From contig CAVONV010000002.1 in the NCBI GenBank assembly GCA_963697355.1, positions 56,372-120,371 of the forward strand: DNA of 64,000 nt. Direction: 5' to 3'. Shown one piece after another: positions 31,985 to 62,047 of the stretch. The stretch's first letter is position 1. Each line of letters opens with the position of its first letter. The notes beneath the pieces were generated by a model. It was not told the DNA's origin and did no database searches. It worked only from the letters and a program-made list of their open reading frames with translations. Source of the DNA: an uncultured Acidobacteriota bacterium (GTDB lineage: Bacteria; Acidobacteriota; Vicinamibacteria; Marinacidobacterales; DATDRI01). The translations under genes and the position numbers were made by a program.

Positions 31985-32130
31985 CGATTACCCGGCGGGT
32001 TTGACGTGGGCGGGTGGCAAGTAGCGACTGCTTGACTGCCCGCCTACGCGGTATTTGATTTCTACTCAGCTTCGGCGGGTCCGCTGTAGCCTTGGCGTAG
32101 GCGGACTCGACTGCTTGACCGCTTGCATTG
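31985..32130. repeat. Copy of the mosaic intergenic repeat (GACTGCTTGACTGCC and CTTCGGCGGGTCCGC modules)
   Basis: gcgactgcttgactgcccgcctacgcgg ... cttcggcgggtccgctgtagccttggcgtaggcggactcgactgcttgaccgc. These modules are shared with 50.6-50.75 kb. Confidence 0.4.
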
Positions 32131-32178
32131 ATATACTTCGAGACCAAACCTGATGAAGAACAAGGAAGGACACTCGTT

Positions 32179-34308
32179 ATGCGATATCTCTCGCAGACAC
32201 TTATTGCACACATCCTCGGCACCGTTTTGCTCACAACGGCCTGTTCGCCTCAAGATGCACCAGAGCCGAAACAAGAGACAGAAATCCTGTGGGACACGTG
32301 GGGAGTCCCTCATGTTTTCGCCGGCGACAACGAGGAGCTCTTCCGCGCATTCGGTTGGGCGCAAATGAAAAGCCACGGCGATCTCATCCTAGAGCTCTAT
32401 GGTCAAGCCCGGGGACGAGCGGCGGAGTACTGGGGAGAAGAAAAGACCGTTTCCGACCGATGGGTTCGTACGATGGGGATATACGAGCGGGCCCGCTGGT
32501 GGTATCAGGATCAGAGCTCAGAGTTTCGTCGTTACCTCGACGCTTTCGCCAAAGGGATGAACGAGTACGCTGAAGAGCACGACGAGGAGATCGACGAACG
32601 TTTCAAGAGAGTGTTGCCTGTCGATGCTGTAGATGTGCTCGCCCATGCTCAAAGGGTCATCCATTTCTCCTTCGTTGGGAGCTCGGAGGCGGTAGGACAC
32701 GCGCGTCAGCTTCTTCGGGAGGATGGAAGCAACGCTTGGGCTATCGGCCCTTCTCGAAGTGCGACCGAGCATGCCATGCTTCTCATCAATCCCCACCTTG
32801 CGTGGTCAGGCGAGCAGCTTTGGTACGAAGCCCATCTGGTGGGTCCGGACATTGATTTCTATGGCGCGGCCCTGGTGGGCTTTCCTGTTTTGGCTCTCGG
32901 GTTCAGCGACGAGCTAGGTTGGAGCCACACGGTCAATACGTTCGACGGCGCCGATTCGTTCGAGCTCACCCTGGAGGATGAAGGGTATCGCTATGATGGA
33001 GAGGTGCGTGGCTTCGAAGAAGAAGAGCAAACCCTTCTGGTTCGACGAGACGATGGGACACATCGAGAAGAAAAGCTCAACATCCGTCGCTCCTTGCATG
33101 GTCCCGTGATCGTGCAGGGAAACACAAAAGCTGTGGCCTACCGCGTCGTGGGGCTCGAGGAGTCCCGGATGCTCGAGCAATGGTGGGACATGAGCCGTGC
33201 GACGAATCTTCAACAGTTCGAGACGATTCTCGAGCGACTTCAAGTACCCATGTTCAACGTTATCTACGCGGACCACGACGGTCACATCCTCTATGTCTTC
33301 AACGGCCGAGTGCCGAAGCGTTCTCAAGGTACGTTCCTTTTCTGGTGGGGTGCGGTCCCGGGAGATACCTCCAAAACGATGTGGACCGAAGTCCATTCCT
33401 ATAGCGAGTTGCCGCGTGTCCTCGATCCGGAAAGCGGCTGGCTGCAGAACGCCAACGATCCGCCTTGGACGTCTACTTTTCCATCGACACTGGACACGAC
33501 GGATTTTCCACTCTACATGGCACCGAGGTTCATGCATTTCCGAGCTCAGCAGTCAGCCAACCTGCTGGCAGGCGACGAGCAGATCTCCTTCGAAGAGCTC
33601 GTCGACTACAAACACTGGACCAGAATGCTACTAGCCGATCGGTTTCTCGATGAGTTGATCGTTGCCGCACGTGAGCATGGTGACGAAAAAGCCAAGAAAG
33701 CCGCGGATGTTTTGGAGAGCTGGGACAGGAGCGCGAACGCAGACTCCGAGGGTGCCATCCTGTTCGAGCGATGGGCGCAGAGTATGGACTTCGAGAAGAT
33801 CGTTTTCGCCATCGATGAGGAGTCCAGGGAGCTGATGATCGACACATTTACTGAGCCTTGGAATCCGGATTCCCCTCACATGACACCCGACGGTTTTCGT
33901 CATCCGGAAAAAGCTGCGGAAGTGTTGGGGAGAGCAGCGGAGCATATCGAGAAAGAATACGGTAACCTCTCGGTAGCCTGGGGCGATGTCTACCGATTCA
34001 AACACGGAGGGAAAGATCTTCCCGCCAACGGTGGCCCTGGAGATCCGACGGGTTTGTTTCGAACAGCCTATTTCGTGCCGGGGGGGGATGGAAGAAGCCA
34101 CATCATGGCCGGAGATACCTTCTATGCTGTGGTGGAGTTCTCTCGACCGTTGAAGGCACGTGTGCTTCTGGCCTACGGCAACGCGACTCAACCGAGCTCT
34201 TCCCACGTGGGCGATCAACTCGAGTTGTTTGCGCAAAAAGAAATGCGAGTCCCTTGGCTCACTCGAGCCGAGGTCGAAGCTCATCTGGAGTCCAAGGAAA
34301 CTTTCTGA
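32179..34308 (+). CDS. Penicillin amidase / AHL-acylase family protein (peptidase S45, Ntn hydrolase), lipoprotein
   Basis: The N-terminus has the lipobox LTTACS. The internal SNAWAIGP provides the catalytic Ser. RBS aaggaagga. Confidence 0.8.
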   Translation: MRYLSQTLIAHILGTVLLTTACSPQDAPEPKQETEILWDTWGVPHVFAGDNEELFRAFGWAQMKSHGDLILELYGQARGRAAEYWGEEKTVSDRWVRTMGIYERARWWYQDQSSEFRRYLDAFAKGMNEYAEEHDEEIDERFKRVLPVDAVDVLAHAQRVIHFSFVGSSEAVGHARQLLREDGSNAWAIGPSRSATEHAMLLINPHLAWSGEQLWYEAHLVGPDIDFYGAALVGFPVLALGFSDELGWSHTVNTFDGADSFELTLEDEGYRYDGEVRGFEEEEQTLLVRRDDGTHREEKLNIRRSLHGPVIVQGNTKAVAYRVVGLEESRMLEQWWDMSRATNLQQFETILERLQVPMFNVIYADHDGHILYVFNGRVPKRSQGTFLFWWGAVPGDTSKTMWTEVHSYSELPRVLDPESGWLQNANDPPWTSTFPSTLDTTDFPLYMAPRFMHFRAQQSANLLAGDEQISFEELVDYKHWTRMLLADRFLDELIVAAREHGDEKAKKAADVLESWDRSANADSEGAILFERWAQSMDFEKIVFAIDEESRELMIDTFTEPWNPDSPHMTPDGFRHPEKAAEVLGRAAEHIEKEYGNLSVAWGDVYRFKHGGKDLPANGGPGDPTGLFRTAYFVPGGDGRSHIMAGDTFYAVVEFSRPLKARVLLAYGNATQPSSSHVGDQLELFAQKEMRVPWLTRAEVEAHLESKETF

Positions 34309-34332
34309 AGATCAGACAAGGAAGCGAGATCC

Positions 34333-37300
34333 ATGCGTTCACCAAGAGCATTCTTTTTGACGTCTCCTGTCCGTACACTGCCTCTGTGGCCCCTATGGAT
34401 GCTTCTCGCATTCTCAGGCGATGTGTCGGGGCAAGAAGTGTCCTTCGGTACAGGCGAGTGGGATATGGAGAGATATGGCAATCACCGCGCCGTCGTCGAA
34501 GTTAGCAGCGGAACCAATGCGGTCTGGGCTCACATTCCTTGGCGGCGAAGGGATGAGAACCCGGAAGCCAAGAACATCCTCGTCATGGACGAAGCAACCG
34601 GTGAACGGATCACCAACGTCGTTCGGTTGAAGATCGATCGAGAGTCGGCAGACCTCGTTTTCCAACCCATCACCGTGCCCGGTAAGGTCTACGTCTATTA
34701 CATGCCCTACGAGACTTCCGGGCGTTCGAACTACCCGACCGTCGTCTATGCTTCTCCGGAAGAAACGGCGGATAAAGCCTGGCTGAGCGATCGCCGGTTG
34801 GAGCGAGAGGAGTGGAAGCAGCTTCCACAAGCAAAGGTCGTCGAGTTTCAGTCGATTGATGAGTTCAACAGTTTTTGGCCCATGGAGGTCATCGCCACGG
34901 AGACCGAGATGAAGGCTCTCCGGGAGCTCTATCCAGAAGCTCCCTACCTGGTGTTTCCTGAAGACCGGCGCTATCCGATCCGGATGACCGATGATTTGCC
35001 GTTCCGATGGATCGAGTCCGGCGCTCGGAAGACGTTTCACGGAGAAGCACTACGCGGCGAGTTCTTCGCGTTTCAATTGGGAATCTATGCCGTTCGTCAG
35101 GCCATAGAGAATCTGGACGTTGGCTTTTCGACCTTTGTTCACCAAAATGGCGCGGACGAGATCCCGTCGGCGCGAGCCCGCTGTATCCATTTGGGAGGCG
35201 TCGATTGGACCGGTAAGCCTTTCACGAAGTCGGTCTCCGTCGAGCAGGGCAAGATACAGGCGATATGGTGCGGTCTCGACGTTCAGGAGGATACGCAACC
35301 CGGACACTATCTGGCTAAGGCTACGGTGACGGCCGACAATCTGGAATCGACGATCATTGACCTCGATATCGAGATTGAATCGGATCTCATCGAGGCTCAC
35401 GGGGACAACGAACCCTGGCGCCACTCCCGTCTCCGCTGGCTCGATTCAACGCTGGCCCTCGATGACGAACTGGTCTCTCCCTATACGGCGGTCGAGTGGG
35501 ACAACACAACTCTCAGCGTTCTCGGACGAAGGGTCAAGCTTGCCGATAGCGGCTTTCCAGGGGCTATCGTGAGCCACTTGGCTCCTGAAATGACCCACAT
35601 CACGGATGAAGGAAGAGAACTACTCTCCGCACCGATGGAGTTGGCCGTGGAGGTTGCCGAGCGACGTCTTCTCCGCTGGCAAAGCGAAGGACCTCGCGTC
35701 GTTCGGCGGGCACCGGGCATCGTGGTTTGGGAGTCCGAGAGCTCATCGGCCGAAGCGATGAAGATGAGCGTACGTGGCGCGATGGAGCTCGATGGCAACA
35801 TGGAGTACGTCGTCGTCTTGACCGCGGACGAACCGACAACGGTGGAAGATATCCGCCTCCTCATCCCCATTGAGAACAACGTCGCAAAGTACATGATGGG
35901 AATGGGACACAAGGGGGGCTTTCGTCCGGAAGAGTTCCATTGGCAGTGGGAAGTCACGAACAACCAGGACGGCGCCTGGATCGGCGACGTCAATGCGGGA
36001 CTCCAGTTCAGCATGAAGGACGAAAACTACTCTCGACCTCTCAATACAAACTTCTATCAGTCCAAGCCTTTAGTCATGCCCTCATCCTGGTCCAACGAGG
36101 GGAAGGGAGGGTGTCGGATGAAAGAAGTAGAGGAGGGTGGGACATTCTTGGTCACTTGCTTCAGTGGACCCAGAACGATCCGGCCTGGCGAGAAGCTATA
36201 CTACAATTTTCGGCTGCTGCTCACTCCATTCCGTCCTCTCGACACGAAGAAGCAGTGGGCCACGCGCTTCTTTCATCGCTTCGAGCCGCTGGACGAAATC
36301 GCCAAGACCGGCGCCAACACCGTCAACGTGCATCATGCCACGGAGATCAACCCTTGGATCAACTATCCCTTTTTGCGACCCGAAGAAATGAAGGCCTATG
36401 TCGATGAGGCTCACTCGAAGAACATGAAGGTCAAGATTTACTACACAGTGAGAGAGCTCTCGAACAAGGCTCCGGAGCTCTTTGCTCTCAAAAGCCTGGG
36501 TGACGAAATCTTCTCACACGGACCCGGCGGAGGATTCTCGTGGCTCCAGGAGCATCTCGACGGTGACTACATCGCCGGCTGGCTAGTGCCTCGCATCTTG
36601 GATGCCGCCGTGGTGAACAGCGGCGTCTCTCGATGGCACAACTACTATCTCGAGGGTCTCGCTTGGGTTGTCGACAACGTCCGGATCGACGGACTCTATA
36701 TCGACGATGTCGCTTTCGATCGGACAGTGATGAAACGGCTTCGAAAGATCCTCGATCGGGGACGGGAAGGTGCTCTCATCGATCTTCATTCCGCGAATCA
36801 ATACAACGAGAGAGACGGTTTCGCCAATAGCGCGAACCTCTATCTCGAGCACTTCCCTTATCTGGATCGCCTCTGGTTCGGGGAGTACTTCGACTACGAC
36901 TCGTCGCCCGACTTTTGGCTCATCGAGCTCTCGGGGATTCCCTTCGGACTCATGGGAGAAATGCTCCAAGACGGGGGTAATCCCTGGCGGGGGATGCTCT
37001 ATGGAATGACGACGCGTCTCCCTTGGGCCGGGGACCCTTCGGCATTGTGGCGCTTCTGGGACGAGTTTGGCATCCAGGACACGCGAATGATCGGCTATTG
37101 GGTGCCTAGCGCTCCCGTCAAGACGAACCATCCCGATGTGTTGGCGACGACCTATGTCGGCGACGGAAAAGCGTTGGTCTCGGTGGCGAGTTGGGCGCGC
37201 GAGCCCGTTGATGTCCGACTCGAGTTCGATTGGAGAGCTTTGGGAATAGAGTCCTCTTCGGCGCGCATCACGGCCTCGGCCATCAAAGATTTCCAGGAGC

Positions 37301-37371
37301 AGGCCGAGTTTTCGGTGGATGCAAAGATCCGAGTTGAGCCGGGCCGTGGTTGGCTACTGGTAATTAAGTAG
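34333..37371 (+). CDS. Large secreted protein, putative TIM-barrel glycoside hydrolase
   Basis: Signal peptide, N-terminal beta-sandwich-like region, and a central IDGLYIDDVAF-type acid motif. Family not pinned down. Confidence 0.45.
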   Translation: MRSPRAFFLTSPVRTLPLWPLWMLLAFSGDVSGQEVSFGTGEWDMERYGNHRAVVEVSSGTNAVWAHIPWRRRDENPEAKNILVMDEATGERITNVVRLKIDRESADLVFQPITVPGKVYVYYMPYETSGRSNYPTVVYASPEETADKAWLSDRRLEREEWKQLPQAKVVEFQSIDEFNSFWPMEVIATETEMKALRELYPEAPYLVFPEDRRYPIRMTDDLPFRWIESGARKTFHGEALRGEFFAFQLGIYAVRQAIENLDVGFSTFVHQNGADEIPSARARCIHLGGVDWTGKPFTKSVSVEQGKIQAIWCGLDVQEDTQPGHYLAKATVTADNLESTIIDLDIEIESDLIEAHGDNEPWRHSRLRWLDSTLALDDELVSPYTAVEWDNTTLSVLGRRVKLADSGFPGAIVSHLAPEMTHITDEGRELLSAPMELAVEVAERRLLRWQSEGPRVVRRAPGIVVWESESSSAEAMKMSVRGAMELDGNMEYVVVLTADEPTTVEDIRLLIPIENNVAKYMMGMGHKGGFRPEEFHWQWEVTNNQDGAWIGDVNAGLQFSMKDENYSRPLNTNFYQSKPLVMPSSWSNEGKGGCRMKEVEEGGTFLVTCFSGPRTIRPGEKLYYNFRLLLTPFRPLDTKKQWATRFFHRFEPLDEIAKTGANTVNVHHATEINPWINYPFLRPEEMKAYVDEAHSKNMKVKIYYTVRELSNKAPELFALKSLGDEIFSHGPGGGFSWLQEHLDGDYIAGWLVPRILDAAVVNSGVSRWHNYYLEGLAWVVDNVRIDGLYIDDVAFDRTVMKRLRKILDRGREGALIDLHSANQYNERDGFANSANLYLEHFPYLDRLWFGEYFDYDSSPDFWLIELSGIPFGLMGEMLQDGGNPWRGMLYGMTTRLPWAGDPSALWRFWDEFGIQDTRMIGYWVPSAPVKTNHPDVLATTYVGDGKALVSVASWAREPVDVRLEFDWRALGIESSSARITASAIKDFQEQAEFSVDAKIRVEPGRGWLLVIK

Positions 37372-37374
37372 GTC

Positions 37375-37407
37375 AGGGTGACTGTCCCCTTGGCGGACTG
37401 TCACCCT
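37375..37407. other. 13-bp-arm hairpin (agggtgactgtcc / ggactgtcaccct) downstream of the hydrolase gene
   Basis: Near-perfect inverted repeat without a U-tract. It shares the CTGTCCCC motif with the 12.9 and 24.19 kb hairpins. Confidence 0.4.
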
Positions 37408-37560
37408 CACCTTAGTGGACAAGACTTGTATGGGAAAAAAGGGACCTGTCCAGACCCGTCCCCTGAACTTGTTACTGACAGCATTTCTGTCGCCTTCAAC
37501 TCAGACTTGCGCGAGGATGCGCCCGACGCTGTGAAGAAAGACCACCGCGAGGAGAGAATC

Positions 37561-38142
37561 ATGATGTCATCGGTGATGATTGTCAGCCTGCTCGGGATAT
37601 CACTTCTGGCCTGGCCGCCTGCGATAGAAAAAGGACCCAAACAGAAAGCGGACACCTCTTTGGAACCTTATGCCCAGCAGGCCAACGAAGCGATAGGGAC
37701 GTTGCAGAAGGGTCTCGTGAAGGCGCTGACAAGGGCGCTCGAAGAAGGGGGTCCCGAAAAAGCCGTGTCCGTTTGTCGTGAAGAAGCCCAAAAGATCACA
37801 GCCCAACTTTCCGAGGAAATGGGAGTCGTCGTCGGTCGGACCAGCCATCTTCTCCGAAACCCGGTCAACGCACCTCGCGAATGGGCCCGACCCATCGTAG
37901 AAGAAAGCGCGGGAAAGACGACGAGCGAAGTCGAGCCTCACGTTCTAGACCTTGGAGACAAAGTCGGCGTATTGAAGCCCATCAACACGCTCGGCTTGTG
38001 TGCGAACTGCCATGGGAAGGTTGAAGAGATCGATACTGAGGTCAAGGAATCTCTGGCTGAATTCTATCCGACCGACCGGGCGGTAGGTTTTTCCGTTGGA
38101 GACCTGCGCGGCTGGATGTGGGCGGAGATCTCCAAGCGATAA
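37561..38142 (+). CDS. DUF3365-like heme-binding (CxxCH) periplasmic protein
   Basis: ATG 37561 gives the signal peptide MMSSVMIVSLLGISLLA. There is a single CANCHG motif near the C-terminus. Confidence 0.55.
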   Translation: MMSSVMIVSLLGISLLAWPPAIEKGPKQKADTSLEPYAQQANEAIGTLQKGLVKALTRALEEGGPEKAVSVCREEAQKITAQLSEEMGVVVGRTSHLLRNPVNAPREWARPIVEESAGKTTSEVEPHVLDLGDKVGVLKPINTLGLCANCHGKVEEIDTEVKESLAEFYPTDRAVGFSVGDLRGWMWAEISKR

Positions 38143-38366: not shown

Positions 38367-40658
38367 ATGAAACGAATCTCATTGTGGCTAGTCGTGCTAT
38401 GCCTCGCCGCGGGGCTGACGGTACCGGTGCCGGCATTCGCACAAGACACGGAAGACGTCATCATCCTGTGCGATGGGGATGCAGAGGCGCTGGTGGCTCA
38501 AATCGAAGCTCTCGGCGGTCGGATTAGCATCCAGTACAAAAACGTCAACGCGTTGGCTGCGACCGTTCCTTCGAACCAAATCGCGGCACTCCGTTCTTTG
38601 GCAAACGTGACCAGCGTCGAGAAAGACGTGTTGGTCACGTTGCCGGGAGATCGTGACGCGGCCGGCCGCGCCACTTCCTATCTAGTCGAGGATGATGTCC
38701 AGGTTGAGTCTTTGAATATTCGTGCGACCGGCCTGGAAGCAGTGCCGCAAGGATATGTGAACTTCTTGATGACGGGAGCAATTCTCGCGTGGGAGGAGAC
38801 CAACTACGGCGATGGAAGCATCGTAGCCGTCGTCGATACGGGGACCGTGCCCAATACCTGTCTCCAACACGCCGTCATTGGGGCGCCGGGTTTTCCCGAC
38901 GGTTACAACGCTACAGGTGATGGTGTCCCCGCCACGTCTTCGACCAACCACTGGCATGGGACTCACGTCGGCGGCGTCATCGCCTCTGACTGTGCTCTGG
39001 ATTTCACTGGGAACGAAACGCACAACGTCTATAGAGCGGTGTCTGCAGTCCTTGGTTGGCCGGTCGATTTCGTGCCCATCCTGGGACAAGCACCAGGAGC
39101 ACAACTCTATCCCGTGAAAGTGTTTCCGGAAAGCGGAGCGGGGTCTCCGAATTCAGTCATCATGGCGGGTCTCGATCATATCCTCACGCTCAAGAAAGAC
39201 GGTCTGCTCGACGTCGATATCGTCAACATGAGTCTCGGGGGGGCGACACTCTTTGATGGGCGGGATGCCTATGACCGATTCCTCGAAGAGTTCGCCAAAT
39301 GGAATATGCTCGTGGTGACATCGGCTGGCAATGACGGCCCCGTTCCGAATTCTGTCGGTTCACCGGCGACTTCTTTTGGAACCCTTGCCGTTGGTGCCAC
39401 CGACGAAGCGCTTTCCTCCCGGACGTTCTATGAGTATCTGGGCTGGGCTGCATTGGGACTTCCCGGTCAAGGTTGGATCATGCGGCCTACTGATGAGAGC
39501 CGCATCGTCAACTATTCGGCTCGTGGGCCCATGACTGACGGCCGAGTTGGGCCCGACATGTCCGCTCTCGGGCACTGGAACTTTCAGGCGGGGACGACAC
39601 CGGGTAGCTTACGCTGGGCCGGAGGCACTTCTTTCTCGGCGCCCACGGTGTCAGGAGCGGCCGCTCTGTTGAATGCCTGGTGGGAGAACAAGGTCGGAAT
39701 GGACACTTACCCCGGCAAGATTCGTAACTCGTTGATGATGGGTGCGAATCCGGAGTGGGTCGGGGAGCCTTGGCGGCCTGATAACGTTCAGGGTACGGGT
39801 GTCGTCGACGTGCCGGCCGCGCTCGATAAGATCAAAGACAAGCACACGCCGAACTGGTGGCCCATCAGGAGAGGTGAGCATCTCGAGCCCAACCTCTTTC
39901 TAGAATCGGATCCCAAGCAATGTGACAAGAAGGACTCGTTCAAGGGCGAAGTGATAACACTCAATGCAGGCGAGACTGAGGATTTGGTGATCGAAATCGA
40001 TCGCTACACGAGCAAGGTAACACTCGAAGTGGAGAACATCGCCACCGCGGACAATTCAGCGAATGCCTTTTGGCCCAATGCCTTACAGGTCAACGTGCAA
40101 AGCGCAAGGAGAACTGCGATTGCTAGTGTCATTGAGTGGTTATGGTATCCCTTTTGGTACGGCGATTGGTTTACCCTCGAGATCGGAGACGGTCCTTGGA
40201 TCTCGACGGATATGACGGGGAGTTATCTCGAGGCCAACCGACCCATGGAGCCAGGACTCATGAGGGTGACTTTTGCCGGCGACTACTCCAACGAGGCACC
40301 GGTCTCCTTCACAGTGAAAGTCGAACGAGAAAGTCGTTGCGACCGAGAGGTAAAACCAATCGTGGCCGGCAAGATCGACAACGGCGACGAGATATTGGTT
40401 GGTCCCTTCAAGATCGGATCGGGATACTCACAGGCCACGATCGATTTGGCCTGGAAGATGGATTGGTCACGATTCCCCACCCACGATCTGGATTTCGTCG
40501 TCTTTGATGAAGACTTCAACGTGGTCGGAAGCGCTGGTACCCTCAACGCGCCGGAGCGTGCCACCATCATCGATCCTGAAGGCATTTACTACATCTTGGT
40601 GATCGGCTATGAGCTGTTTGACACCGATGACTATGGGATATTCATAAAGCTGGAATAA
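38367..40658 (+). CDS. Subtilisin-like serine peptidase (S8), secreted, with C-terminal extension domains
   Basis: Catalytic triad motifs VAVVDTGT, HGTHVGG and GTSFSAPTVSGAAALL. Signal peptide. RBS ggggggagga. Confidence 0.85.
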   Translation: MKRISLWLVVLCLAAGLTVPVPAFAQDTEDVIILCDGDAEALVAQIEALGGRISIQYKNVNALAATVPSNQIAALRSLANVTSVEKDVLVTLPGDRDAAGRATSYLVEDDVQVESLNIRATGLEAVPQGYVNFLMTGAILAWEETNYGDGSIVAVVDTGTVPNTCLQHAVIGAPGFPDGYNATGDGVPATSSTNHWHGTHVGGVIASDCALDFTGNETHNVYRAVSAVLGWPVDFVPILGQAPGAQLYPVKVFPESGAGSPNSVIMAGLDHILTLKKDGLLDVDIVNMSLGGATLFDGRDAYDRFLEEFAKWNMLVVTSAGNDGPVPNSVGSPATSFGTLAVGATDEALSSRTFYEYLGWAALGLPGQGWIMRPTDESRIVNYSARGPMTDGRVGPDMSALGHWNFQAGTTPGSLRWAGGTSFSAPTVSGAAALLNAWWENKVGMDTYPGKIRNSLMMGANPEWVGEPWRPDNVQGTGVVDVPAALDKIKDKHTPNWWPIRRGEHLEPNLFLESDPKQCDKKDSFKGEVITLNAGETEDLVIEIDRYTSKVTLEVENIATADNSANAFWPNALQVNVQSARRTAIASVIEWLWYPFWYGDWFTLEIGDGPWISTDMTGSYLEANRPMEPGLMRVTFAGDYSNEAPVSFTVKVERESRCDREVKPIVAGKIDNGDEILVGPFKIGSGYSQATIDLAWKMDWSRFPTHDLDFVVFDEDFNVVGSAGTLNAPERATIIDPEGIYYILVIGYELFDTDDYGIFIKLE

Positions 40659-41327
40659 GCTGAAAGCTTCAACCGCGCCGGGGAGGGTTCCCTTCGGTTC
40701 CCTCCCCTTTTTTGTGTCTCGAGGTTCTTCGCAGAGGACAATTCTCTCTACATCTGTGTGGTACAGGTAGGTTTTGCCCGCATGTTCCAATTCAACGAGA
40801 AACCCCTCTGTCTCGACCTTATCGTAGGTCTTCCCTTCTTCTGGACAGCCTAAGCTCGTGTCCGGCCAAGTCTTGAATCTCACATAGTTGATCTTGATGT
40901 CGTCTGCATCGATGCGGAGCCTCTCGGCGAGCTCTTGCTTTGCTTGTCCCGAGATCCTCTCGGCGGCGACGAGACGTTCTTTCTTCGGGACATAGGGGCT
41001 CTTTTGCTTCTCCTGACAAATGACAGCACGTCCACCGCCCACGTGGACGCGATAAACCTGCTCACCGTGGCGAAAAACAACCCTATAGCCGGGGATGATG
41101 ACCTGAAGGTAAGACGTTCCCTTTTCGGGGCATCCCAGGCTGCTGTCCGGCCATTTCACGGGATAGGCCTTCGGAATTCCTGCCTCCCCGTCCCTGACGT
41201 GGAGCTCTCGGGCGAGTGTTTCGGTTGCGAGATCGATGGCTTCTTGTTCGGTCATCTCCTGCATTGGAGCAAAAGACGATGCCAGCAACAGGCCAACTAC
41301 CAGCGATAGCATTTTGACCCCCTCCAA
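40467..41327 (-). CDS. Secreted protein with two tandem Cys-containing modules of about 55 aa (paralog B); the C-terminal extension is doubtful
   Basis: Signal peptide MLSLVVGLLLASS. The two modules contain WPDSSLGCPEKG...C and WPDTSLGCPEEG...C. The ORF continues about 75 aa past the second module, across the antisense of the subtilase terminator. Confidence 0.5.
   Translation of the reverse strand: MEGVKMLSLVVGLLLASSFAPMQEMTEQEAIDLATETLARELHVRDGEAGIPKAYPVKWPDSSLGCPEKGTSYLQVIIPGYRVVFRHGEQVYRVHVGGGRAVICQEKQKSPYVPKKERLVAAERISGQAKQELAERLRIDADDIKINYVRFKTWPDTSLGCPEEGKTYDKVETEGFLVELEHAGKTYLYHTDVERIVLCEEPRDTKKGREPKGTLPGAVEAFSLFQLYEYPIVIGVKQLIADHQDVVNAFRIDDGGTLRRVEGTSASDHVEVFIKDDEIQIVGGES
40680..40713 (+). 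terminator. Rho-independent terminator of the S8 peptidase gene
   Basis: GGGGAGGG, a 13-nt loop, CCCTCCCC, then TTTTTT. Confidence 0.6.
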
Positions 41328-41435
41328 TATGACTGTGGCTTCTCAGCTCGTTCTATCATAATACCCCGGACAGGGATTCTTATTCCGTAGGTAATTCGGG
41401 CGGAACGAGCCGGGTGACGGCGGGAATGCTCGAAA

Positions 41436-42038
41436 TCACTCTTCCGTCGTTCTGCAGAGGAAAGGTGTTTCCGAATCGGAGCGATACTCGTAAGTCACAC
41501 CGTGGCAGACTAGTTCGATCAAGTAGCCGGGGGTCTCAACGGCTTCGAATGTCTCACCTTCAGCAGGGCAGCCGAGGCGAGTGTCGGGCCAGGTCATCGG
41601 CTTGAGGACCTTGACTTCAATATCGGCGTCTTGGATTCCCAATCGCGAGGCGAGGTCCTCACGAGCGAGGCGTGACAGGCGAAGGGCCGTCAGGAGAGCA
41701 GCATTGTTGGAGCGATAGGCGTTGGTCTTCCTCCCCCGGCAAAGTACGGCCCGTCCGTCGCCGACATGCACGCGATACGAAAGGCTGCCGCGGCGAAAGA
41801 CGACACGGTATCCTGAGACGACCTCTTGGAGATAGGAGCCGCCACTTTGGGGACAGCCGAGGCTGCTGTCCGACCACTTGACCGGCAAGGCGCTCACCAC
41901 CGTAGCGTCATCGGCATCTATGTCGAGTGCTTGGGTGAGTGTATCCGTGGCCAGATTGACGGCTTGGTCGGTCGTTATGGTTGAGACATGAAATGATGAC
42001 GGCGTGTCGAGCAAAAGGAGCAGGAGCAGGACCGGCAT
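41436..42038 (-). CDS. Secreted protein with two tandem Cys-containing modules (paralog A)
   Basis: WSDSSLGCPQSG...C and WPDTRLGCPAEG...C. It ends right after the second module. Confidence 0.55.
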   Translation of the reverse strand: MPVLLLLLLLDTPSSFHVSTITTDQAVNLATDTLTQALDIDADDATVVSALPVKWSDSSLGCPQSGGSYLQEVVSGYRVVFRRGSLSYRVHVGDGRAVLCRGRKTNAYRSNNAALLTALRLSRLAREDLASRLGIQDADIEVKVLKPMTWPDTRLGCPAEGETFEAVETPGYLIELVCHGVTYEYRSDSETPFLCRTTEE

Positions 42039-42184
42039 AGCACTACCTTTCGAAAAACAACTACTAGCTCCCTATCCCATCATAGCGCGGAATTTCCCAG
42101 GAGTCAGGTTCTCGACGGGTCAAACCACTCCGTGCAATTGGATTCTCTAAGTCCTTAAATTAGAGCCGTTTAATCTGAGCCGGT

Positions 42185-48370: not shown

Positions 48371-49348
48371 ATGAGGCGGTTGCGAGACTTGGCTGCTGCG
48401 GGACTCGTTCTGGCTCTGGCAGGTTGCGGCGAGCCACCTCCCGACGACCCCGTCATCGTCGAGATCGGTGAGCGTAGGATAACTCATTCCCAGTTCGAAG
48501 GTTACGTTGCGAACATGGTCGACGAACAGGCCCCATTTGCCGAAGGAGAGCTCAAGGCCGAGCTTCTGAGCCAATTCATCGATGAGCAGCTCCTTCTCAT
48601 GGAGGCGGATGCGAAAGGAATCGAGGTGGATCCGAGTGAAGTCGAGTCCTTGGCTTTCCAAGTCGAGTCCATGGCGAATGAGGGAGAGACGGGAAGCCCT
48701 GAGGATGCGGAAGCCCGTCGAGCAAGAACCCGCATGGATTTCGAGAGCCACCTTCGGGTGCGCCGACTCATCGACGAGAAAGTACTGAAGGACTTGGAGG
48801 TGGCGGAAGACGAGGTGGCTCGGTACTACGAAGAGCACCGAGAGTTCTACAAACGGCCGGAAGCCGTGGACATTTCTCAGATCTTGGTCGATTCGGAATC
48901 AGAAGCGACCCGGATAATGGAAGAGATCAAGAAGAGGCCCGCAAGTTTCGAGGAGTTGGCGCAGCAGCACTCGACGGGTCCGGAAGCTTCACGGAAAGGA
49001 CACCTCGGTACCTATCGGAAGGGCGAGCTTCCGCCGGCGTTCGAGAACGAAGTGTTCTCGCTTCCCAAGGGTGGATTGTCGGAGGTGGTCGAGACCGACT
49101 TTGGTTTTCACATCTTTCGTGTGAACGAGATACGACGGTCTCGGGAGCTCAAGCTGGAAGAAGTGGCGGACGCCATCCGAGTCGAGCTCCTTCGCGAGAA
49201 GGGTGACGAGGCGATGGCCCTCTACATTGAGGAGCTCCGGAGACAGTATCCTGTCAAGGTCTTCGGCGACCGGTTGAGTTTTCCCTATACGGAGCGAGGC
49301 GCTGCAGCCAGCGAGCCCTCGCCCACCAGGCGACCGGCAGGTTTGTAG
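48371..49348 (+). CDS. SurA/PpiD-like peptidyl-prolyl isomerase (parvulin) lipoprotein
   Basis: Lipobox LALAGCG. PPIC rotamase domain DISQILV...GELPPAFENEVFSLPKGGLSEVVETDFGFHIFRV. Confidence 0.8.
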   Translation: MRRLRDLAAAGLVLALAGCGEPPPDDPVIVEIGERRITHSQFEGYVANMVDEQAPFAEGELKAELLSQFIDEQLLLMEADAKGIEVDPSEVESLAFQVESMANEGETGSPEDAEARRARTRMDFESHLRVRRLIDEKVLKDLEVAEDEVARYYEEHREFYKRPEAVDISQILVDSESEATRIMEEIKKRPASFEELAQQHSTGPEASRKGHLGTYRKGELPPAFENEVFSLPKGGLSEVVETDFGFHIFRVNEIRRSRELKLEEVADAIRVELLREKGDEAMALYIEELRRQYPVKVFGDRLSFPYTERGAAASEPSPTRRPAGL

Positions 49349-49378
49349 GTTCGCCATACTAATGTGGAGGTCAACATC

Positions 49379-50332
49379 ATGAAAAGAGCGCTCACGATGA
49401 TCTTCCTAGCCTATGTGCTGGGCCCTAATCTCGTGCGGGCTGAGGTAGTGGAGCGCATCGTTGCCAAAGTCAACGGTCAAATCATCACCAAGACTCAGTT
49501 GGACAAAGAATATCAGATGCTCATCGAGCGTCTCGGTCCTGCTCCTACCCCGGAGGAGGAAGAACGGCGTAGAACCGAGCTCCGAGGAGAGGTTCTCGAT
49601 TCGATGATCGACACAATGCTCATTATGCAGATTGCAGACGAACGAGGGCTCCGAGTTCCGCCGCGGTACTTCCAAGAGTGGAAGGCCAACATCATGAAGG
49701 AGATGAACATCGAGACCGAAGAGGATTTCCAGAGGCAGATCGAGATCCAAGGCTTGACGGAGGACGATCTCCGAGAGAACTTCGAGCGGAACTTGCTCAC
49801 CCAAGAGATCCGGCGGATGGAAGTCGAGAACAAAATCAACATCGCCCAGCCTGAGATCGAAAAGTACTACCGCGAGCACATCACGGACTATACTGAACCG
49901 TCCAAAGTGAGGATTCGCGAGGTCGTCGTCAAGTTCGAGGCCGGGGGCGAGGCTGAAGCGGAGCAGAGAGCCCGCCGTTTGCTGCAAGACATTCAGCAAG
50001 GTGCAGACTTCGCGGAAGTGGCGCGTCGTCACTCAGATGCTTCTTCCAAGGAGGCGGGAGGAGATTTGGGTTTCTTCGAGCAAAGAGAGCTAGCCGCACC
50101 ATTGGCCTCGGTGGCTTTTGAGATGACGCCGGGGGACATCAGTGATTTGATCCGCATGGATACGTCCTTCCGCATCATTCGAGTGGAAGAAAAAACGGAG
50201 GAAAAGACCATGACCTTGGACTCCGTCTACAATGACATTGGCAATGCTCTCCGGGAGGAATTGCTCCAAGAACAGACCGAGAAGTTCCTGAAACAGATTC
50301 GAGAGCAAGCCATTGTCGAAGTGAGGATATAG
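49379..50332 (+). CDS. SurA-like peptidyl-prolyl isomerase (parvulin), secreted
   Basis: GGAGG RBS 8 nt upstream of ATG 49379. Signal peptide. Rotamase domain IREVVVKF...DLGFFEQRELAAPLASVAFEM. Confidence 0.8.
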   Translation: MKRALTMIFLAYVLGPNLVRAEVVERIVAKVNGQIITKTQLDKEYQMLIERLGPAPTPEEEERRRTELRGEVLDSMIDTMLIMQIADERGLRVPPRYFQEWKANIMKEMNIETEEDFQRQIEIQGLTEDDLRENFERNLLTQEIRRMEVENKINIAQPEIEKYYREHITDYTEPSKVRIREVVVKFEAGGEAEAEQRARRLLQDIQQGADFAEVARRHSDASSKEAGGDLGFFEQRELAAPLASVAFEMTPGDISDLIRMDTSFRIIRVEEKTEEKTMTLDSVYNDIGNALREELLQEQTEKFLKQIREQAIVEVRI

Positions 50333-52334: not shown

Positions 52335-55070
52335 TCATTTCGTGCTCAAGCGCGAAAGCTCCCGGGGGCTCAGCGGAGTTGCCGGCCCCTGGTACAAGGC
52401 ATTGAAAAGGAGCTTGAAGGTGGCACGGGGCTGAGTGCGAAACGACACTTGACTCGCGAGCGCCACTACATTGCCTCGGCCAACTTTGAAAGCCATGACG
52501 TTGGCCTGGTCACGGAGAAGGTCCCCACCTAGGAGCCAGCCGCTTGCGACAAGATTGTCTTTGTCCGGGTACCGCGTGACCACTTCCGCCTCGATGTCGA
52601 AACCAGGCTTGATGCGATATGCCTGGTCGTAGCGAAAAAAGATCGGCCACTCGCTCGGCATACCGAAAGCGACTGGGTGGTTCGGGTTGAATTGATGTTC
52701 GAGTAATGAGCCTGGGCAGAAGAAAACCGTCGCGGCATTGACGACATTGTCCCGGAGTGTTTTCATGAGCTGAGTGGGGCTTTGAAAGGCCTCCTTGAGC
52801 ATCCGGTCGGCTTGGCTCTTCGGGATTTGTGGCTCGTCGCGCGGATCGGGACTCGCTGATCCGCCGGACCGTCGAGGAGGCTCGGGTAGCAGTTTCTCGA
52901 TGGGAAGGTCGCAAAGCTCGCGCGCTGTCTCGACCGAGCTCCCCAAGGCAACAAGAGTGCCTCCGTTCTCCACCCAACCGGCGAGCTTGTTCCATCCCGA
53001 TTCACCGATCCCATAGGCCCATTTCCAGTTCTCATCATGCCGGTCCTGTGAAAGCCCCTCGATCATCCGTGACTTGCTTGTACCGGCCGGAAGCACGATA
53101 ACGTCGTACTTGGATGAGAGGTCGCCCGCAAAATCGGTCGACGACATGACCTGATGGTTGAAACCATACTGCTCGAAGAGCCACATCATCCAGCCCGCCG
53201 GCATGTTGCCGGCGACCTTGTAGAGGCCAATGCGGGTAGGTGCCTTGATGCGATATCCGTCGATTCCGGGCGCCCGGTTAGTGGCGGATACCGCGAGGCC
53301 CGTCTCTTTGGATACCGTCTGCAAAACGGCCCCGGCCTTGCCTTTCGGAGGAACGATCCAGGTGCCAGGCGAATGTTGTTTCCCATCCGCCTGGAAGCCT
53401 TTGGCGGCTCGAAAGACGGGGACATTCTCTTTCTGCAGCCGAGCCAAGGCCAAAAAGCCGGCATTGGACTCGGGTCCGATGAGATAGGCCCAACTGGGTT
53501 TGTTTGGAAAGGACGCCGGAGGTGGTGTGATCTCCTCGAGAAGCTCGAGGTCCGCTTCGAATTTTCTCTCCACCTGACGTACATCCACTCCCATGAGCAT
53601 GCCGAGGGTTTGAGCCGTCACATCGTAGGGAGGAATGGGAGGCCCTCCTTCGAAATACCGCAAATCGGGATAGATCTGTTTCTCGAGCATCGTCTTGGCG
53701 TAGGCGCCACTTGGTTGGGCGAGGAGAACGACCCAGGAGCCGGCCGGATAGTCATGACCATCCGCAGCAAAAGCGGCCTTGGCCTGATGGATCTCCACGT
53801 CACCCGTGTCGAGAAGCTCCAGCATTTCATAAGCTTCGAACGGATCTCTCTGCTCGGCCGGAATCACGAAAGCAAAAGGAGATTCATCCCGATTCACCCA
53901 ATCACGATGGATCTTGTAGAAATTCTCGAGCCAGGCATCGCGATACTTCGCCATGTGCTTGAGGCCGCCGAACTCGGCGGTGATGGCGTAGTCCACGATA
54001 TCGCCCAGCCGCCAGATGCCCTTCTCGTAGGGTTTGGGAAAATTCCAACGGATTTCCTGGGGACCCAAAGGCGTGTCTTCTCCAGCCGGGTTCACGAATG
54101 GGTCGGCCAGATTGGCGCTGGCTAACTCGGTCAGAATGCGGGGTTGGCCGTGGTAGACCATGTACTGGCGGGCCGGCGCCCAGTAGTCGTATTGAGTCGC
54201 GTAGGTGACGCCGCCCTTACCGTCCGAGATGAGCTCCGCGGCCATGGCGAGGCCGATTTGCGCCTGTGCCTCGATGATAATGGGGTGGATGTTGGGGTCA
54301 TATGGATCCTTGAACGGCGGAACGAAGATCCGAGCCCCCGTCGACCCCATTTGATGCATGTCGTGGGTGAGCTGCGGATTGTAGACGTTCTGGACTTTCT
54401 CGATGGCAAGCCTCGTTTCAACCTGGGTGAACATGAACCAATCGCGGTTATCATCATGGCCAACATACTTATGATAAAGGTCCGGATAACGACGGTCGTA
54501 GCCGGTCCCTTTGTTGTCGTACCAGTGATCGATAACGAGCACCTGTCCGTCGGGATTTTGCGACGGAACGAGAAGCAAGACCGTGTTATCGAGAATCTGT
54601 TGGATCTCGGCGGAGTCCTCGGTGGCCATCCGATGGGCGATTTCGATGATGGCCTGCCCATTGCCTACTTCGGTTGCGTGGATAGTGGAAAAGAGGAGAT
54701 AAAAAGGTACTCCCTCATCGACCAACGCCATCGCTTCTGTCTCCGACAGCCCTCTCGGATTGGCGAGGCGGCCGGTAATCTCCACGAGTCGGTCCATCCG
54801 TGCCAAGTTTTCGGGCGAGCTTATCTTCACCAGCACATAGGGGTGGCCCATGGTCGACTTGCCGAGCTCCTCGAACGTGACGCGACCCGAGCCGGCCGCC
54901 AGATGTTGGAAATACTCCAACACTTTGGGATAGCGAGCCATCTCCCCATCGGTTCCAATCTCGAATCCAAAAAATTGCTGTGGAGTCTGGACCGGCTGAG
55001 CCATGCCTGGCGCAGCCAGGACGACCAAGCTCACCAGAGTCAGCGCGATCACCGAGAATCTATGTCTCAT
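52335..55070 (-). CDS. Large secreted M14-family (zinc carboxypeptidase-like) protein
   Basis: ATG 55070 gives the signal peptide MRHRFSVIALTLVSLVVLAAPGMA. Zinc motif HATE (HxxE). About 911 aa with C-terminal accessory domains. Confidence 0.7.
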   Translation of the reverse strand: MRHRFSVIALTLVSLVVLAAPGMAQPVQTPQQFFGFEIGTDGEMARYPKVLEYFQHLAAGSGRVTFEELGKSTMGHPYVLVKISSPENLARMDRLVEITGRLANPRGLSETEAMALVDEGVPFYLLFSTIHATEVGNGQAIIEIAHRMATEDSAEIQQILDNTVLLLVPSQNPDGQVLVIDHWYDNKGTGYDRRYPDLYHKYVGHDDNRDWFMFTQVETRLAIEKVQNVYNPQLTHDMHQMGSTGARIFVPPFKDPYDPNIHPIIIEAQAQIGLAMAAELISDGKGGVTYATQYDYWAPARQYMVYHGQPRILTELASANLADPFVNPAGEDTPLGPQEIRWNFPKPYEKGIWRLGDIVDYAITAEFGGLKHMAKYRDAWLENFYKIHRDWVNRDESPFAFVIPAEQRDPFEAYEMLELLDTGDVEIHQAKAAFAADGHDYPAGSWVVLLAQPSGAYAKTMLEKQIYPDLRYFEGGPPIPPYDVTAQTLGMLMGVDVRQVERKFEADLELLEEITPPPASFPNKPSWAYLIGPESNAGFLALARLQKENVPVFRAAKGFQADGKQHSPGTWIVPPKGKAGAVLQTVSKETGLAVSATNRAPGIDGYRIKAPTRIGLYKVAGNMPAGWMMWLFEQYGFNHQVMSSTDFAGDLSSKYDVIVLPAGTSKSRMIEGLSQDRHDENWKWAYGIGESGWNKLAGWVENGGTLVALGSSVETARELCDLPIEKLLPEPPRRSGGSASPDPRDEPQIPKSQADRMLKEAFQSPTQLMKTLRDNVVNAATVFFCPGSLLEHQFNPNHPVAFGMPSEWPIFFRYDQAYRIKPGFDIEAEVVTRYPDKDNLVASGWLLGGDLLRDQANVMAFKVGRGNVVALASQVSFRTQPRATFKLLFNALYQGPATPLSPRELSRLSTK

Positions 55071-55323
55071 GCCTCCGCTCCCTTCTGTTTCGTACGTGCT
55101 TGCTGGGTATTCCAATCCCTCAACGATGACGAGATTGTACGCGCGGCAGCGTCGCCGGTCGAATGCAAAGACTCCGCATCTGAACCGTACAATGACACTG
55201 TGCATTACGCTCGGCTGAGCTCCGAAGAACGCATCGAACCACTTGCCAAACACATAGTCGCTTTCCTCGTATGGCTGGAAGATCGTCAGTAAGATTTTCA
55301 AAATATACTGAAGTGCGCGAGGC

Positions 55324-55789: not shown

Positions 55790-56330
55790 ACCGTCAAACA
55801 GTCAAAGTTAGGACTCCTCCGGCGAAGAACTCAAGGACTCGAGAAGACAGTGATTCGACCACTATGTCGACTGGATTTGTGCCCTTGACTGACCCAACTG
55901 GTCACTGTGAACCCGCCTTCGCTCATTGCGTCACGCTGTTGGCTTCCGCCTCCGTCGGCGGCGCCGATTCTTGCCACCGACCTTGGCGAGACTCGCCGAA
56001 GCGAATGCGAAGGCGGTCGGCGGGTCCGCGCTAAGCTTGAATAGGCGGACTGCCCACTGCCCACCGCCCACCGCCTACTTTCTTCTTCACTGGTAACTGG
56101 TCACTGGCTTCTGGCCTCTCTTCTTTTGCTGGTCACCCGCCTTCGCCGCCAAGTCTTATCATCGGCGGCTACCGCCTCCGTCGCTGAATCGATCGATGGG
56201 CCAGCGACTTCGGCGAGTCTCGCGGTAGCTCCGCAAGGGAGTCGGTCGAGACGGAGCGTAGGCGGACTGGTCACTGATCACTTCTACTGTCTGCCTACTG
56301 GCTTCTTTCCACTAACGGCGTATACTTGTG
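55790..56330. repeat. Mosaic intergenic repeat block R (internally duplicated unit of about 220 bp), inverted relative to block L
   Basis: Unit A is 55900-56125 and unit B is 56129-56330. They share cgccttcgc..ccgcctccgtcg..cttcggcgag.ctcgc..taggcggactg..cactg..ctggcttct. There is no ORF with coding-like composition. Confidence 0.55.
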
Positions 56331-56490
56331 CCCCGAGGTAGAGCGTCATGAAGCCCGCAACGAGCTCCCGATTTACGATTCCGAAACGAGACCAGAAGCG
56401 GAACTATTCTGCAGTGACGTGTATCCAAACAGAGTGAAAGGTATACGTATGCCACGAGATGAAGTGAACCACCGGTGCGGTAAGAAGTGG

Positions 56491-57831
56491 ATGGTCCGAA
56501 CGGCCGTGACGGTCACGATGACGGCTGCGATTGGTTTTGGATCCGTTCAAAAGAGTCAGGCACGAGAGATGTCTCCCTCTGTCCAGGAATCCCTTTCAGC
56601 CACAAAGAAACTGCAATCGGTCATTGAGGCGGCATGGGAGACCGGGCCCGACCTTGTCGAGAGCTTATCCAGGCTCGATGCGGAGGCGGCACTCGACCAG
56701 TCCTTTCGGGGTGTGGGCTCGCCGTATGTCCAATTCCAAATGGAGGGTATTGGCTCCGGATTTGACCCTCAGCCCAATGCCCAGCGGTACCTACGTCTGG
56801 GAACGCCCTTCGATCTTCCCTGGCATTTCGGTAAATCACGAAAGCTCGGGGGCGGACTCGAAGATTGGCAGGGTGTTGCCGCCGAGGCCGCTCGACTTCG
56901 GGTGGCTCAGAATGTGACTGTTGCGTGGTTGCGATTGGCCGCTGTCGAGGAAATGATCGGCGTCGAGGAACGTCGTTTGAGCCGGTTGGACCAAGCGGTC
57001 CGCCTCCAATCGGAACGCCTCCATTTGGGCGAGGTGGCCGGCATGGAGGTCATGCAACTCGAGCTCCAGAGGGCCAAGGATGCATCGATCCTGAGAGCTC
57101 TGGAGGCCGAGCAGCGGGCCATGCAAGCGGCGATCCGGCAGTTGGCCGGTGACGGGGTGGCGCTCCCGGCATTGGGAGATCTTCCCGCCCTTGCCGACGA
57201 TCTTCCGCCCTGGTCCATCGGTTGGGAAGGGGAAGGTGCGGAAGAAAAGGTGAAGAGGGGGCCCTACTTTTCCAGTCTGGACAGACGTACCGAAAAAGAA
57301 CTGTTATTGCGCGATCTGATTGACGCCACGGCATGGGGACGACCGGAAATCCAAGTGGAGTGGGAGCACATTCCCGCCTTAGAAGGACTCCCTTCGTTCG
57401 ATGCCTTCGGTTTCAACTTGTCCGTTCCTCTGCCTCTGGGAAAAAGAGGTGGGCAGACAAAGGCGACGGCCCAAGCGGAAGCCAGAGCCGCCGCCGCCGC
57501 CCGCGAGCGTGGTCGTCGCGAATTGGTGCAAAGGGCCGAGGCCGCCTGGGCAGAGGTGGAATCCGCAACGGCAAGGCTCAAAGAAACGGAGCCCCTTTTG
57601 GATCGCTTGCCACGAACCGAGCGCTCGTTGAGCGAGCAGTTTCGCCTCGGGGCCATTACTTATTTGGTTTATATCGATGGCCTCGCTCGATTGGACGATC
57701 TCATGGTTCAACGGATCGAGGCCTTCGAAGCTTTTGTGAGGTCACGGTTGGAATTGGCCGTCCTGTTAGGGGATAGCAACTCTTTTCCCCTTCCACCCTT
57801 CAGGGCGGTAGACACCGAGGAGGCGAACTGA
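56491..57831 (+). CDS. Outer-membrane efflux protein (TolC/CzcC family)
   Basis: Signal peptide MVRTAVTVTMTAAIGFG. Two repeated coiled-coil/beta-barrel halves. It lies upstream of MFP and RND genes. Alternative starts are 56449 and 56326. Confidence 0.8.
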   Translation: MVRTAVTVTMTAAIGFGSVQKSQAREMSPSVQESLSATKKLQSVIEAAWETGPDLVESLSRLDAEAALDQSFRGVGSPYVQFQMEGIGSGFDPQPNAQRYLRLGTPFDLPWHFGKSRKLGGGLEDWQGVAAEAARLRVAQNVTVAWLRLAAVEEMIGVEERRLSRLDQAVRLQSERLHLGEVAGMEVMQLELQRAKDASILRALEAEQRAMQAAIRQLAGDGVALPALGDLPALADDLPPWSIGWEGEGAEEKVKRGPYFSSLDRRTEKELLLRDLIDATAWGRPEIQVEWEHIPALEGLPSFDAFGFNLSVPLPLGKRGGQTKATAQAEARAAAAARERGRRELVQRAEAAWAEVESATARLKETEPLLDRLPRTERSLSEQFRLGAITYLVYIDGLARLDDLMVQRIEAFEAFVRSRLELAVLLGDSNSFPLPPFRAVDTEEAN

Positions 57832-58940: not shown

Positions 58941-58948
58941 GGGGCGTC

Positions 58949-61900: not shown

Positions 61901-62047
61901 GTTGGCTCGGAAGTGCAGCGTCCTTTGGCCGTTGTCGTGGTCTCCGGTGTGGTGACATCGACGCTTCTGACTTTGATGGTACTTCCCGTCCTCTACGAGC
62001 GTTATGGTGGGACTGCAGTAGGACAGCCGAAGAATGGCAGCGTTTAG
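58949..62047 (+). CDS. Heavy-metal-efflux RND transporter (CzcA/CusA family)
   Basis: 1032 aa with 12 TM helices. LSGLAIAIGMLGDGAIVLVEN and other HME-RND signatures. GTG start. Confidence 0.9.
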   Translation: MKRLIDISLTNRLVVILLSVLLIGAGIRALLRLPIDAFPDVTNIQVTVISQAATFSPLEVEQLVTYPIEQACAGLPYSTEVRSLSKFGLSMITVVFEDGTDIYFARQLVMERLFSIQDELPEGVSSNLGPISTGLGEVFQYTLESPERDLMELRSLQDWVLRPILRTTPGVAGVDSFGGYVRQYHVVADPSALRRFGLTVEELAQAVAANNGVAGGGYIERGGEQFVVRGDGWVRSIADLQSTVVAYRERVPVLLEQVASVEIGPEIRQGAISQNGEGEAVAGIVLMLRGASGKDVVDGVKDRLATARQSLPPDVEVNPFYDRTVLVETALGTVQKALFQGAVLVLLVLLFFMGHFRSSMLVALQLPMAALATFVVMDIVGLSANLMTLSGLAIAIGMLGDGAIVLVENGVRLFGQEGQRTENEDRSSLVRQAALEVIRPIAFGVAVIIVVFLPIASLQGMEGKMFAPLAYTISIALGCALILTVTLIPALASLFLKPVKVFGSGRHPADIVRQMYRPHLAWALNHPRFVMVAAFALLIVALAVVPFLGTEFLPSMDEGDIVVQPFQIPSVSLSQSLDTVARIEKAILEVPEVTRVVSRTGRSDIASDPMGVGESDMYVILRPRSEWHTARNKEGLVAALRDKLDTVPGVEFGYTQPIQMRVDELISGVKSQIAVKIFGDDLQGLAGLGEQVAGVLRQVRGAVDVKVEAVEGLGYLQITMHRRRMARLGVSVAQLRSLIEIAMGGQVVTTVPEGDRRTDVMVRLPQAFTRNVENLRSLPLSTPSGEQVLLREVTEIDLVEGPAQISREEGKRRVVVELNVVGRDIGGFVEEAQQRLDAEIQLPTGYFVTWGGQFEQQQRAMARLQVMVPLALLLIFILLYINFRAVRPVFIILVNIPLALVGGVLGLKISGLYLSVSASVGFIALFGIAILNGLVMVEFFNNLERQGVSRRQAILTGAEMRLRPVLMTAATTALGLVPLIWASGVGSEVQRPLAVVVVSGVVTSTLLTLMVLPVLYERYGGTAVGQPKNGSV

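Follow-up and report, generated by a model that had tools for sequence, protein, structure and literature searches.

The stretch of DNA analysed here, referred to below as the window, comprises 64,000 nucleotides of a contig (CAVONV010000002.1) from an uncultured Acidobacteriota bacterium. It carries two adjacent minus-strand genes, A and B, each encoding a small protein with a hydrophobic leader and two copies of a module, and a convergent plus-strand gene for a secreted S8 subtilase. Our analysis establishes that the module is a real, large and uncurated domain family that has neither a name nor a Pfam or NCBIfam model, and that there is genetic coupling between its two-module subfamily and the genes of secreted S8 subtilases. 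The principal features, in window coordinates, are as follows.

38367..40658, plus strand: gene of the partner secreted S8 subtilase, 763 amino acids, with signal peptide, I9-like prodomain, catalytic D157/H197/S422 and a C-terminal domain of about 270 amino acids
40467..41327, minus strand: gene A, longest open reading frame (ORF), 286 amino acids
40722..41312, minus strand: gene A, conserved body, 197 codons, two modules; start ATG 41312 with GGAGGGGG upstream
40731..40979, minus strand: A module 2, residues 112-194; loop WPDTSLGCPEEGKTY; Cys156 and Cys194
41016..41252, minus strand: A module 1, residues 21-99; loop WPDSSLGCPEKGTSY; Cys61 and Cys99
41436..42038, minus strand: gene B, from the ORF list, 200-amino-acid protein, predicted to be exported, two modules
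41454..41702, minus strand: B module 2, residues 113-195; loop WPDTRLGCPAEGETF; Cys157 and Cys195, additional Cys178; Arg for a conserved His
41739..41975, minus strand: B module 1, residues 22-100; loop WSDSSLGCPQSGGSY; Cys62 and Cys100
42079..42107: promoter-like site of gene B, a sequence match to a promoter pattern

Genes A and B and their module

The first-pass annotation of the window had described A and B as adjacent minus-strand paralogues made of a leader and two modules each, and this description is borne out. The two proteins share 47% identity over 194 amino acids (E 5e-63), the halves of B are 29% identical to one another (E 5e-10), and W, D, L-G-C-P, G, G, Y and the distal C are invariant across the four aligned modules. 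The tandem duplication that gave rise to the pair appears to be specific to the lineage of the window. A protein identical to B (P0001) is present in 4 assemblies. Comparison with relatives places the start of gene A at ATG 41312 and not at TTG 41327, because all close relatives of A (P0025-P0028, P0009) are 197 amino acids long and begin MLSL. Module 2 of B has an Arg at residue 186 (window 41505..41507), a position at which His is otherwise 90% conserved, in addition to its extra Cys178.

The module is larger than the roughly 55 amino acids at first assigned to it. The unit spans 73-80 residues, since the W-to-C core of 46 amino acids is preceded by a conserved amphipathic N-terminal helix (consensus LA-x-x-DLA-x-RLG-V-x-x-x-x-I-x-V); because this helix belongs to the unit, the length is about 75-80 and not 55 residues. 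AlphaFold2 models of A and B, built with 51-52 homologues, depict each module as a single helix that packs against a four-stranded antiparallel sheet. The B model has a mean predicted local distance difference test score (pLDDT) of 88, with 93-98 in the modules and 93-97 in the loop blocks, and the modules of A score 94-97. The most conserved feature of the module is an 18-residue loop between strands beta1 and beta2 that contains W-x-D-x-S-L-G-C-P-x-x-G-x-x-Y. The linker between the modules (RGRKTNAY / QEKQKSPYVPKKE) is Lys/Arg-rich and disordered, with pLDDT values from below 50 to 61. A Foldseek search of the PDB returned no match at E 0.001 or better; the fold class is one common to cystatins, latexin (which has two tandem domains), PepSY and M36 propeptides. 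As modelled, the module is a cystatin/PepSY-like roll with a unique expanded loop, outside any solved family.

Both proteins begin with strongly hydrophobic stretches (Kyte-Doolittle 9-residue maxima 2.9 and 3.2), in leaders that are short and have no basic n-region. Among family proteins that start with Met, 190 of 208 possess a hydrophobic N-terminus and about 96 a lipobox-like motif. Judged by these N-termini, A and B should be exported and reach at least the periplasm. The window also encodes, at 48371..50332 and 56326..62047, two SurA-like peptidyl-prolyl isomerases and an OEP-HlyD-AcrB efflux operon, so that the host is a diderm and the periplasm is the first destination of the two proteins.

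Family membership and the module loop

The view that the module is not a named family also stood. Neither A, B nor their relatives (51 members tested, up to E 10) gave a match in Pfam, NCBIfam or PADLOC, where the sub-threshold hits (Tautomerase, Homeodomain, PD-C2-AF1) were noise, and a profile search found no PDB sequence match for the module. The proteins are labelled 'hypothetical protein' in every source, and full-text searches of the literature yielded nothing relevant on an SLGCP-type motif or on subtilase/PepSY neighbours. A defence system or phage element was considered and dropped, as no match supported it.

Resemblances to known families were examined through hidden Markov model (HMM) membership, fold and motifs. 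Searches with the PepSY families (PF03413 and related Pfam entries), at E up to 1 for A and B and up to 10 for 51 relatives, gave no match; the module shares with PepSY a helix and four-stranded antiparallel sheet of about 60-80 residues, whereas PepSY domains (M4/M36 propeptides, YpeB, YpmB) have no long Cys-stapled W-x-D-x-S-L-G-C-P loop and are linked to metallopeptidases, not to S8 enzymes. A and B have neither an HMM match to cystatins (MEROPS I25, PF00031) nor the QxVxG or PW motifs. Cystatins target papain-like cysteine peptidases and latexin M14 enzymes, and the likeness of the module to them lies in the fold class, with the tandem layout added in the case of latexin. For Streptomyces subtilisin inhibitor (SSI; I16, PF00720), A and B display neither an HMM match nor the SSI fold. 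The subtilase propeptide model I9 (PF05922) matches only the N-termini of the window S8 and of partner S8s, not A or B, and that of chagasin (I42, PF09394) matches only a separate region of the fusion protein P0213. None of the HMM membership tests gave a match. The module is not to be assigned to PepSY, cystatin, latexin or SSI.

When 1.84 billion representatives (50% identity) were searched with a profile, 11,335 proteins matched at E <=0.001, 7,924 of them at E <=1e-10. In GTDB species representatives, nearly all of them metagenome-assembled genomes, there are at least 580 module loci. The family is found in Chloroflexota (Anaerolineae, Caldilineaceae, Dehalococcoidia, Chloroflexia, Thermomicrobiales), Acidobacteriota, Myxococcota, Gammaproteobacteria (Steroidobacteraceae) and Actinomycetota. 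The number of modules per protein ranges from one to at least five, and free single-module proteins are common. The GTDB locus nearest to the window (L003) is labelled Anaerolineae, which may reflect a binning or labelling problem. Of the ten largest matches scanned, P0213 alone is a fusion with Pfam annotation: this 1561-amino-acid fragment joins six modules without Cys to chagasin (I42)-like and RHS repeats.

The conserved Cys pair had been read as consistent with a disulfide, and covariation strengthens that reading: of 528 modules, 465 have the G-C-P Cys together with the C-terminal Cys, 61 have neither and 2 have a single one (one each way). In the alignment the pair thus behaves as a disulfide that would staple the loop to the last strand. 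A variant subfamily without the canonical pair carries Cys in place of Ser31 and Tyr41 in this loop (W-x-D-x-C-L-G...C). The occurrence of two different staples on one loop argues that a rigid loop conformation is the selected feature. Both canonical Cys are absent in P0111, P0120, P0131, P0142, P0174; P0119, P0123, P0128, P0132, P0144, P0155, P0213. One group lacking them has the alternative Cys pair, and others have none at all (LGNP, LGVP, LGGY).

The loop is not equally constrained in all modules. In module 2 of S8-linked two-module proteins, the stretch that follows G-C-P carries 1.76 bits per column as against 2.2-2.5 in the other module classes, while the scaffolds are equally conserved between classes (about 2.3-2.4 bits). 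An aromatic residue (Y/F) occupies position 41 in 17/28 of these second modules compared with 26/28 of the first. Among close B orthologues, variability peaks in the module 2 loop, where there is also an indel; the loops of module 1 and of gene A are conserved, unlike that of S8-linked module 2. In canonical inhibitors, the contact residues are hypervariable on a conserved scaffold.

Linkage to secreted subtilase genes and the gene A interval

The partner enzyme matches PF00082 at E 1.4e-32, with a weak I9 match, and its catalytic motifs were located. Linkage to S8 peptidases in relatives, on which the first-pass annotation had staked its idea of a protease-related role, proved real and conserved. 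Around the module genes of 80 GTDB loci, with flanks of up to 10 kb, S8 peptidases are the commonest neighbouring family and directly adjoin the module gene in 24 loci, usually within 250 bp. Outside Chloroflexota the adjacency rises to 17/26 (14/19 where both flanks are at least 1.5 kb). There are 25 S8 genes in the 416 kb that lie up to 3 kb from a module gene versus none in the 725 kb farther out (3-10 kb), a difference with a nominal p of 1e-11 that is not corrected for phylogeny. The partner S8s fall into three architectures (S8-only, as in the window, I9-S8(PA)-fn3_6 and S8(PA)-fn3_5) and the pairs into five phyla, so that inheritance of a single gene pair does not account for the linkage. 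In each of three additional homologues for which gene calls exist, a convergent PF00082 gene lies alongside, at 15, -4 and 60 bp, and the remaining neighbours differ. Seen from the enzyme side, in metagenome loci, a module gene adjoins 14/48 window-type S8 genes (8/24 with good flanks) and none of 24 generic S8 loci (Fisher p 0.003 versus window-type). Hence the coupling is specific, although for the S8 genes it is facultative.

Single-module genes are also found by other peptidases. One overlaps a co-directional M28 gene (L167 3149..4670), an arrangement also seen in L080 (4817..6350). Another (L168 1503..6138) is flanked on one side by a divergent S8 gene and on the other by a convergent InhA-like_MAM gene, past which comes an M14 gene. 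The M28 and InhA-like adjacencies are real but rare, with one further GTDB locus each. Alternative partners in S8-less loci were considered and rejected, the neighbours there being miscellaneous (Calx-beta/PKD, CoA-transferase, HEAT-repeat, transporters). In nine of the Chloroflexota multi-module loci, the gene of a large P-loop/HEAT-repeat protein is convergent downstream.

The interval in which gene A meets the S8 gene has three further features.

40719..40721, minus strand: lost stop codon of gene A, CGA in the window, TGA in the sister contig L002 and TAG in L003, by DNA alignment
40467..40718, minus strand: read-through tail of gene A, 83 codons past CGA and a stop, antisense to the 3' end of the S8 gene
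40680..40707, no strand assigned: G+C-rich hairpin, GGGGAGGG-N12-CCCTCCCC, between the convergent gene A and S8 gene

Gene A had initially been drawn to 40467, and this extension did not hold: it stems from a TGA-to-CGA stop loss. Proteins of the family end in LCE(E/K)P, and the next codon in the window is the CGA, the loss of which as a stop adds 84 residues (the 83 codons at 40470..40718 follow it). The tail overlaps the S8 gene by 192 nucleotides in antisense and crosses the hairpin. The resulting 281-amino-acid ORF is also called in three other assemblies and is therefore not the error of one assembly. No homologue covers the tail (query coverage at most 70%), and its pLDDT is 30-62 compared with 94-97 for the modules of A. 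By these comparisons the end at 40467 is not the end of the family and the tail lies outside it. The hairpin (fold energy -28.2 kcal/mol, z -2.85) is conserved in L002 and has a similar counterpart in L003. Because a T-run follows it on the plus strand, it is probably the terminator of the S8 gene.

Some observations concern the wider surroundings. Directly upstream of the S8 gene (window 37378..38142, plus strand) is the gene of a Tll0287-like protein that carries a c-type haem motif, CANCH; this gene is kept in L002 and not in other module/S8 loci. The S8 gene of L002 (8655..10946) is split into three ORFs of 450, 201 and 96 amino acids, and an ABC-2 permease in L001 (5172..5798) is shortened to 208 from 260 residues; both look like frameshift errors of those assemblies, not biology. 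Exported hydrolases encoded nearby (window 32128..37371 and 52335..55301) include a penicillin amidase, a GH123 enzyme and a 988-amino-acid M14 carboxypeptidase-like protein. The window contains no rRNA, tRNA or Rfam match.

Proposed role of A and B

What might A and B do beside a secreted subtilase? We tentatively propose, with a confidence that stops a little short of even, that they are exported and act, via the stapled loop, as double-headed inhibitors or negative regulators that bind the neighbouring enzyme tightly. They would bind the subtilase and keep it inactive, and the rigid loop of one or both modules would be the protease-binding element, presented in a substrate-like manner or as a wedge. 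Double-headed inhibitors of this kind would shield the envelope from the cell's own protease. Additionally, processing might take place in the basic, disordered stretch that joins the modules.

Parallels exist for the single elements of this proposal. SSI is secreted and has a disulfide-braced reactive loop in which Cys-Pro comes right before P1 (Cys71-Pro72-Met73), an arrangement comparable with the G-C-P of the module, while sequence and fold differ. AprI/Inh (I38) and ecotin (I11) are periplasmic inhibitors with a Sec leader that protect the diderm envelope from an outgoing protease. The logic proposed for A and B is the same, and the folds are unrelated beta-barrels; AprI, moreover, is encoded in the protease operon and targets serralysins. 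In logic, the nearest known system seems to be that of the potempins and KLIKK peptidases of Tannerella forsythia, where small, previously unannotated lipoproteins are encoded beside the secreted peptidases that they control (PMC9890683). A loop of the potempin inserts into the active-site cleft, and one of these proteins, PotC, is a standard-mechanism inhibitor of the S8 subtilase mirolase (PMC9890683). Like potempins, A and B are small, unannotated, predicted to be exported and encoded directly beside a secreted peptidase. Potempins, however, are OB-fold or eight-stranded beta-barrels, anchored as outer-membrane lipoproteins and co-transcribed upstream of the peptidase (PMC9890683), whereas A and B are predicted to combine a helix with four strands in tandem, lie on the opposite strand and are inhibitors by proposal, and they do not qualify as potempins.

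A broader version of the proposal is doubtful, if worth stating. The module as such might define a new, very large family of multi-headed peptidase inhibitors, directed mainly at subtilases, with a cystatin/PepSY-like roll and a stapled reactive loop, whose genes are antisense-adjacent to their target, mostly convergent, for independent or reciprocal control, for example by convergent transcription.

Several points weigh against an inhibitory role. The evidence in its favour is genetic and predicted-structural. The predicted likeness to the inhibitor-type folds of cystatin, latexin and PepSY is generic. Conservation in the loop is highest at W, D, S, L, G, C and P, which have the look of structural residues, and no residue can be named as P1. 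The linkage statistics ignore shared ancestry. Within Chloroflexota the S8 adjacency falls to 7/54, and the multi-module lipoproteins of that phylum (L022-L053 Caldilineaceae, L066-L082, L167) adjoin pgeF-yggS-proC-yggT-type genes instead. Two of the four single-module genes checked have no peptidase nearby, and of the window-type S8 genes only about a third are accompanied by a module gene. The arrangement of the genes is a further difficulty. Of 46 pairs (loci L003-L082, L083-L137, L163, L165, the window and L002), 45 have the module gene and the S8 gene on opposite strands, 33 of them convergent, 11 divergent and 1 unclear, the sole co-directional pair being a single-module gene that starts 12 bp past the S8 stop in L116 (4281..4595). 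Genes A and B are not co-transcribed with the S8 gene, while known protease-inhibitor pairs (potempins, AprI, emfourin, staphostatins) are. This opposite-strand arrangement is the most unusual aspect of the pairs.

Other roles have to be set against inhibition by A and B. Their tandem domains might bind the S8 enzyme or its C-terminal domain as a non-inhibitory accessory factor that aids folding, envelope retention, secretion or activation, in the manner of PepSY/FTP propeptides and YpeB. We regard this as unlikely, as partner S8s bring their own I9-type prodomain, the neighbour is absent from two thirds of window-type S8 genes, which would be odd for an obligatory foldase, and the sequences of A and B suggest no membrane anchor. 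A general extracytoplasmic binding or structural domain, with an envelope component or another ligand, would make the S8 adjacency a matter of co-regulation or co-transfer. Such a domain would suit the generic fold, the conserved D, S, Y and H residues that could form a ligand site, the placement of module and S8 genes on opposite strands and the fact that most of the family, in particular the 3-5-module Chloroflexota lipoproteins by pgeF-yggS-proC-yggT, has no peptidase neighbour. It is nevertheless improbable in our judgement, since nothing but the module-S8 pair is kept amid changing neighbours in five phyla and with three S8 architectures, no S8 gene occurs at 3-10 kb and there are additional adjacencies to M28 and InhA-like genes.

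Two further explanations fare worse. As a dedicated substrate or precursor, each protein would be cut by the subtilase in its basic linker, freeing stable, active single modules. The low pLDDT and Lys/Arg-rich composition of the linker and the abundance of free single-module proteins are in keeping with this, but there is no conserved cleavage motif and the conserved features sit in the folded loop, not in the linker, so that we consider it a slim prospect. Such processing would in any case be compatible with the inhibitor model and not an alternative to it, as multi-domain inhibitor precursors are processed likewise. That A and B are chance ORFs or annotation artefacts, as the atypical leaders and the lost stop codon of gene A might hint, is refuted by thousands of homologues with conserved motifs, the confident predicted folds, that of B included, and the conserved synteny.

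What are the implications for the family and its carriers? With more than 11,000 clusters at 50% identity and at least 580 GTDB species, this uncurated family can be curated at once from the present alignments. Its genetic coupling to subtilases has not been reported previously, and the nearly invariant opposite-strand arrangement is atypical for a protease and its partner; if the proposed role holds, the pair would join a known kind of system, peptidases genetically coupled to a protein inhibitor, as a structurally new variant. Should A, B and their relatives be inhibitors of the neighbouring subtilases, they would constitute a new family of protein inhibitors for S8 enzymes, of which bacterial examples are few, and inhibitors of this sort are of use in biotechnology. 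If true, this would help to explain how abundant soil and sediment bacteria restrain their large secreted proteases.

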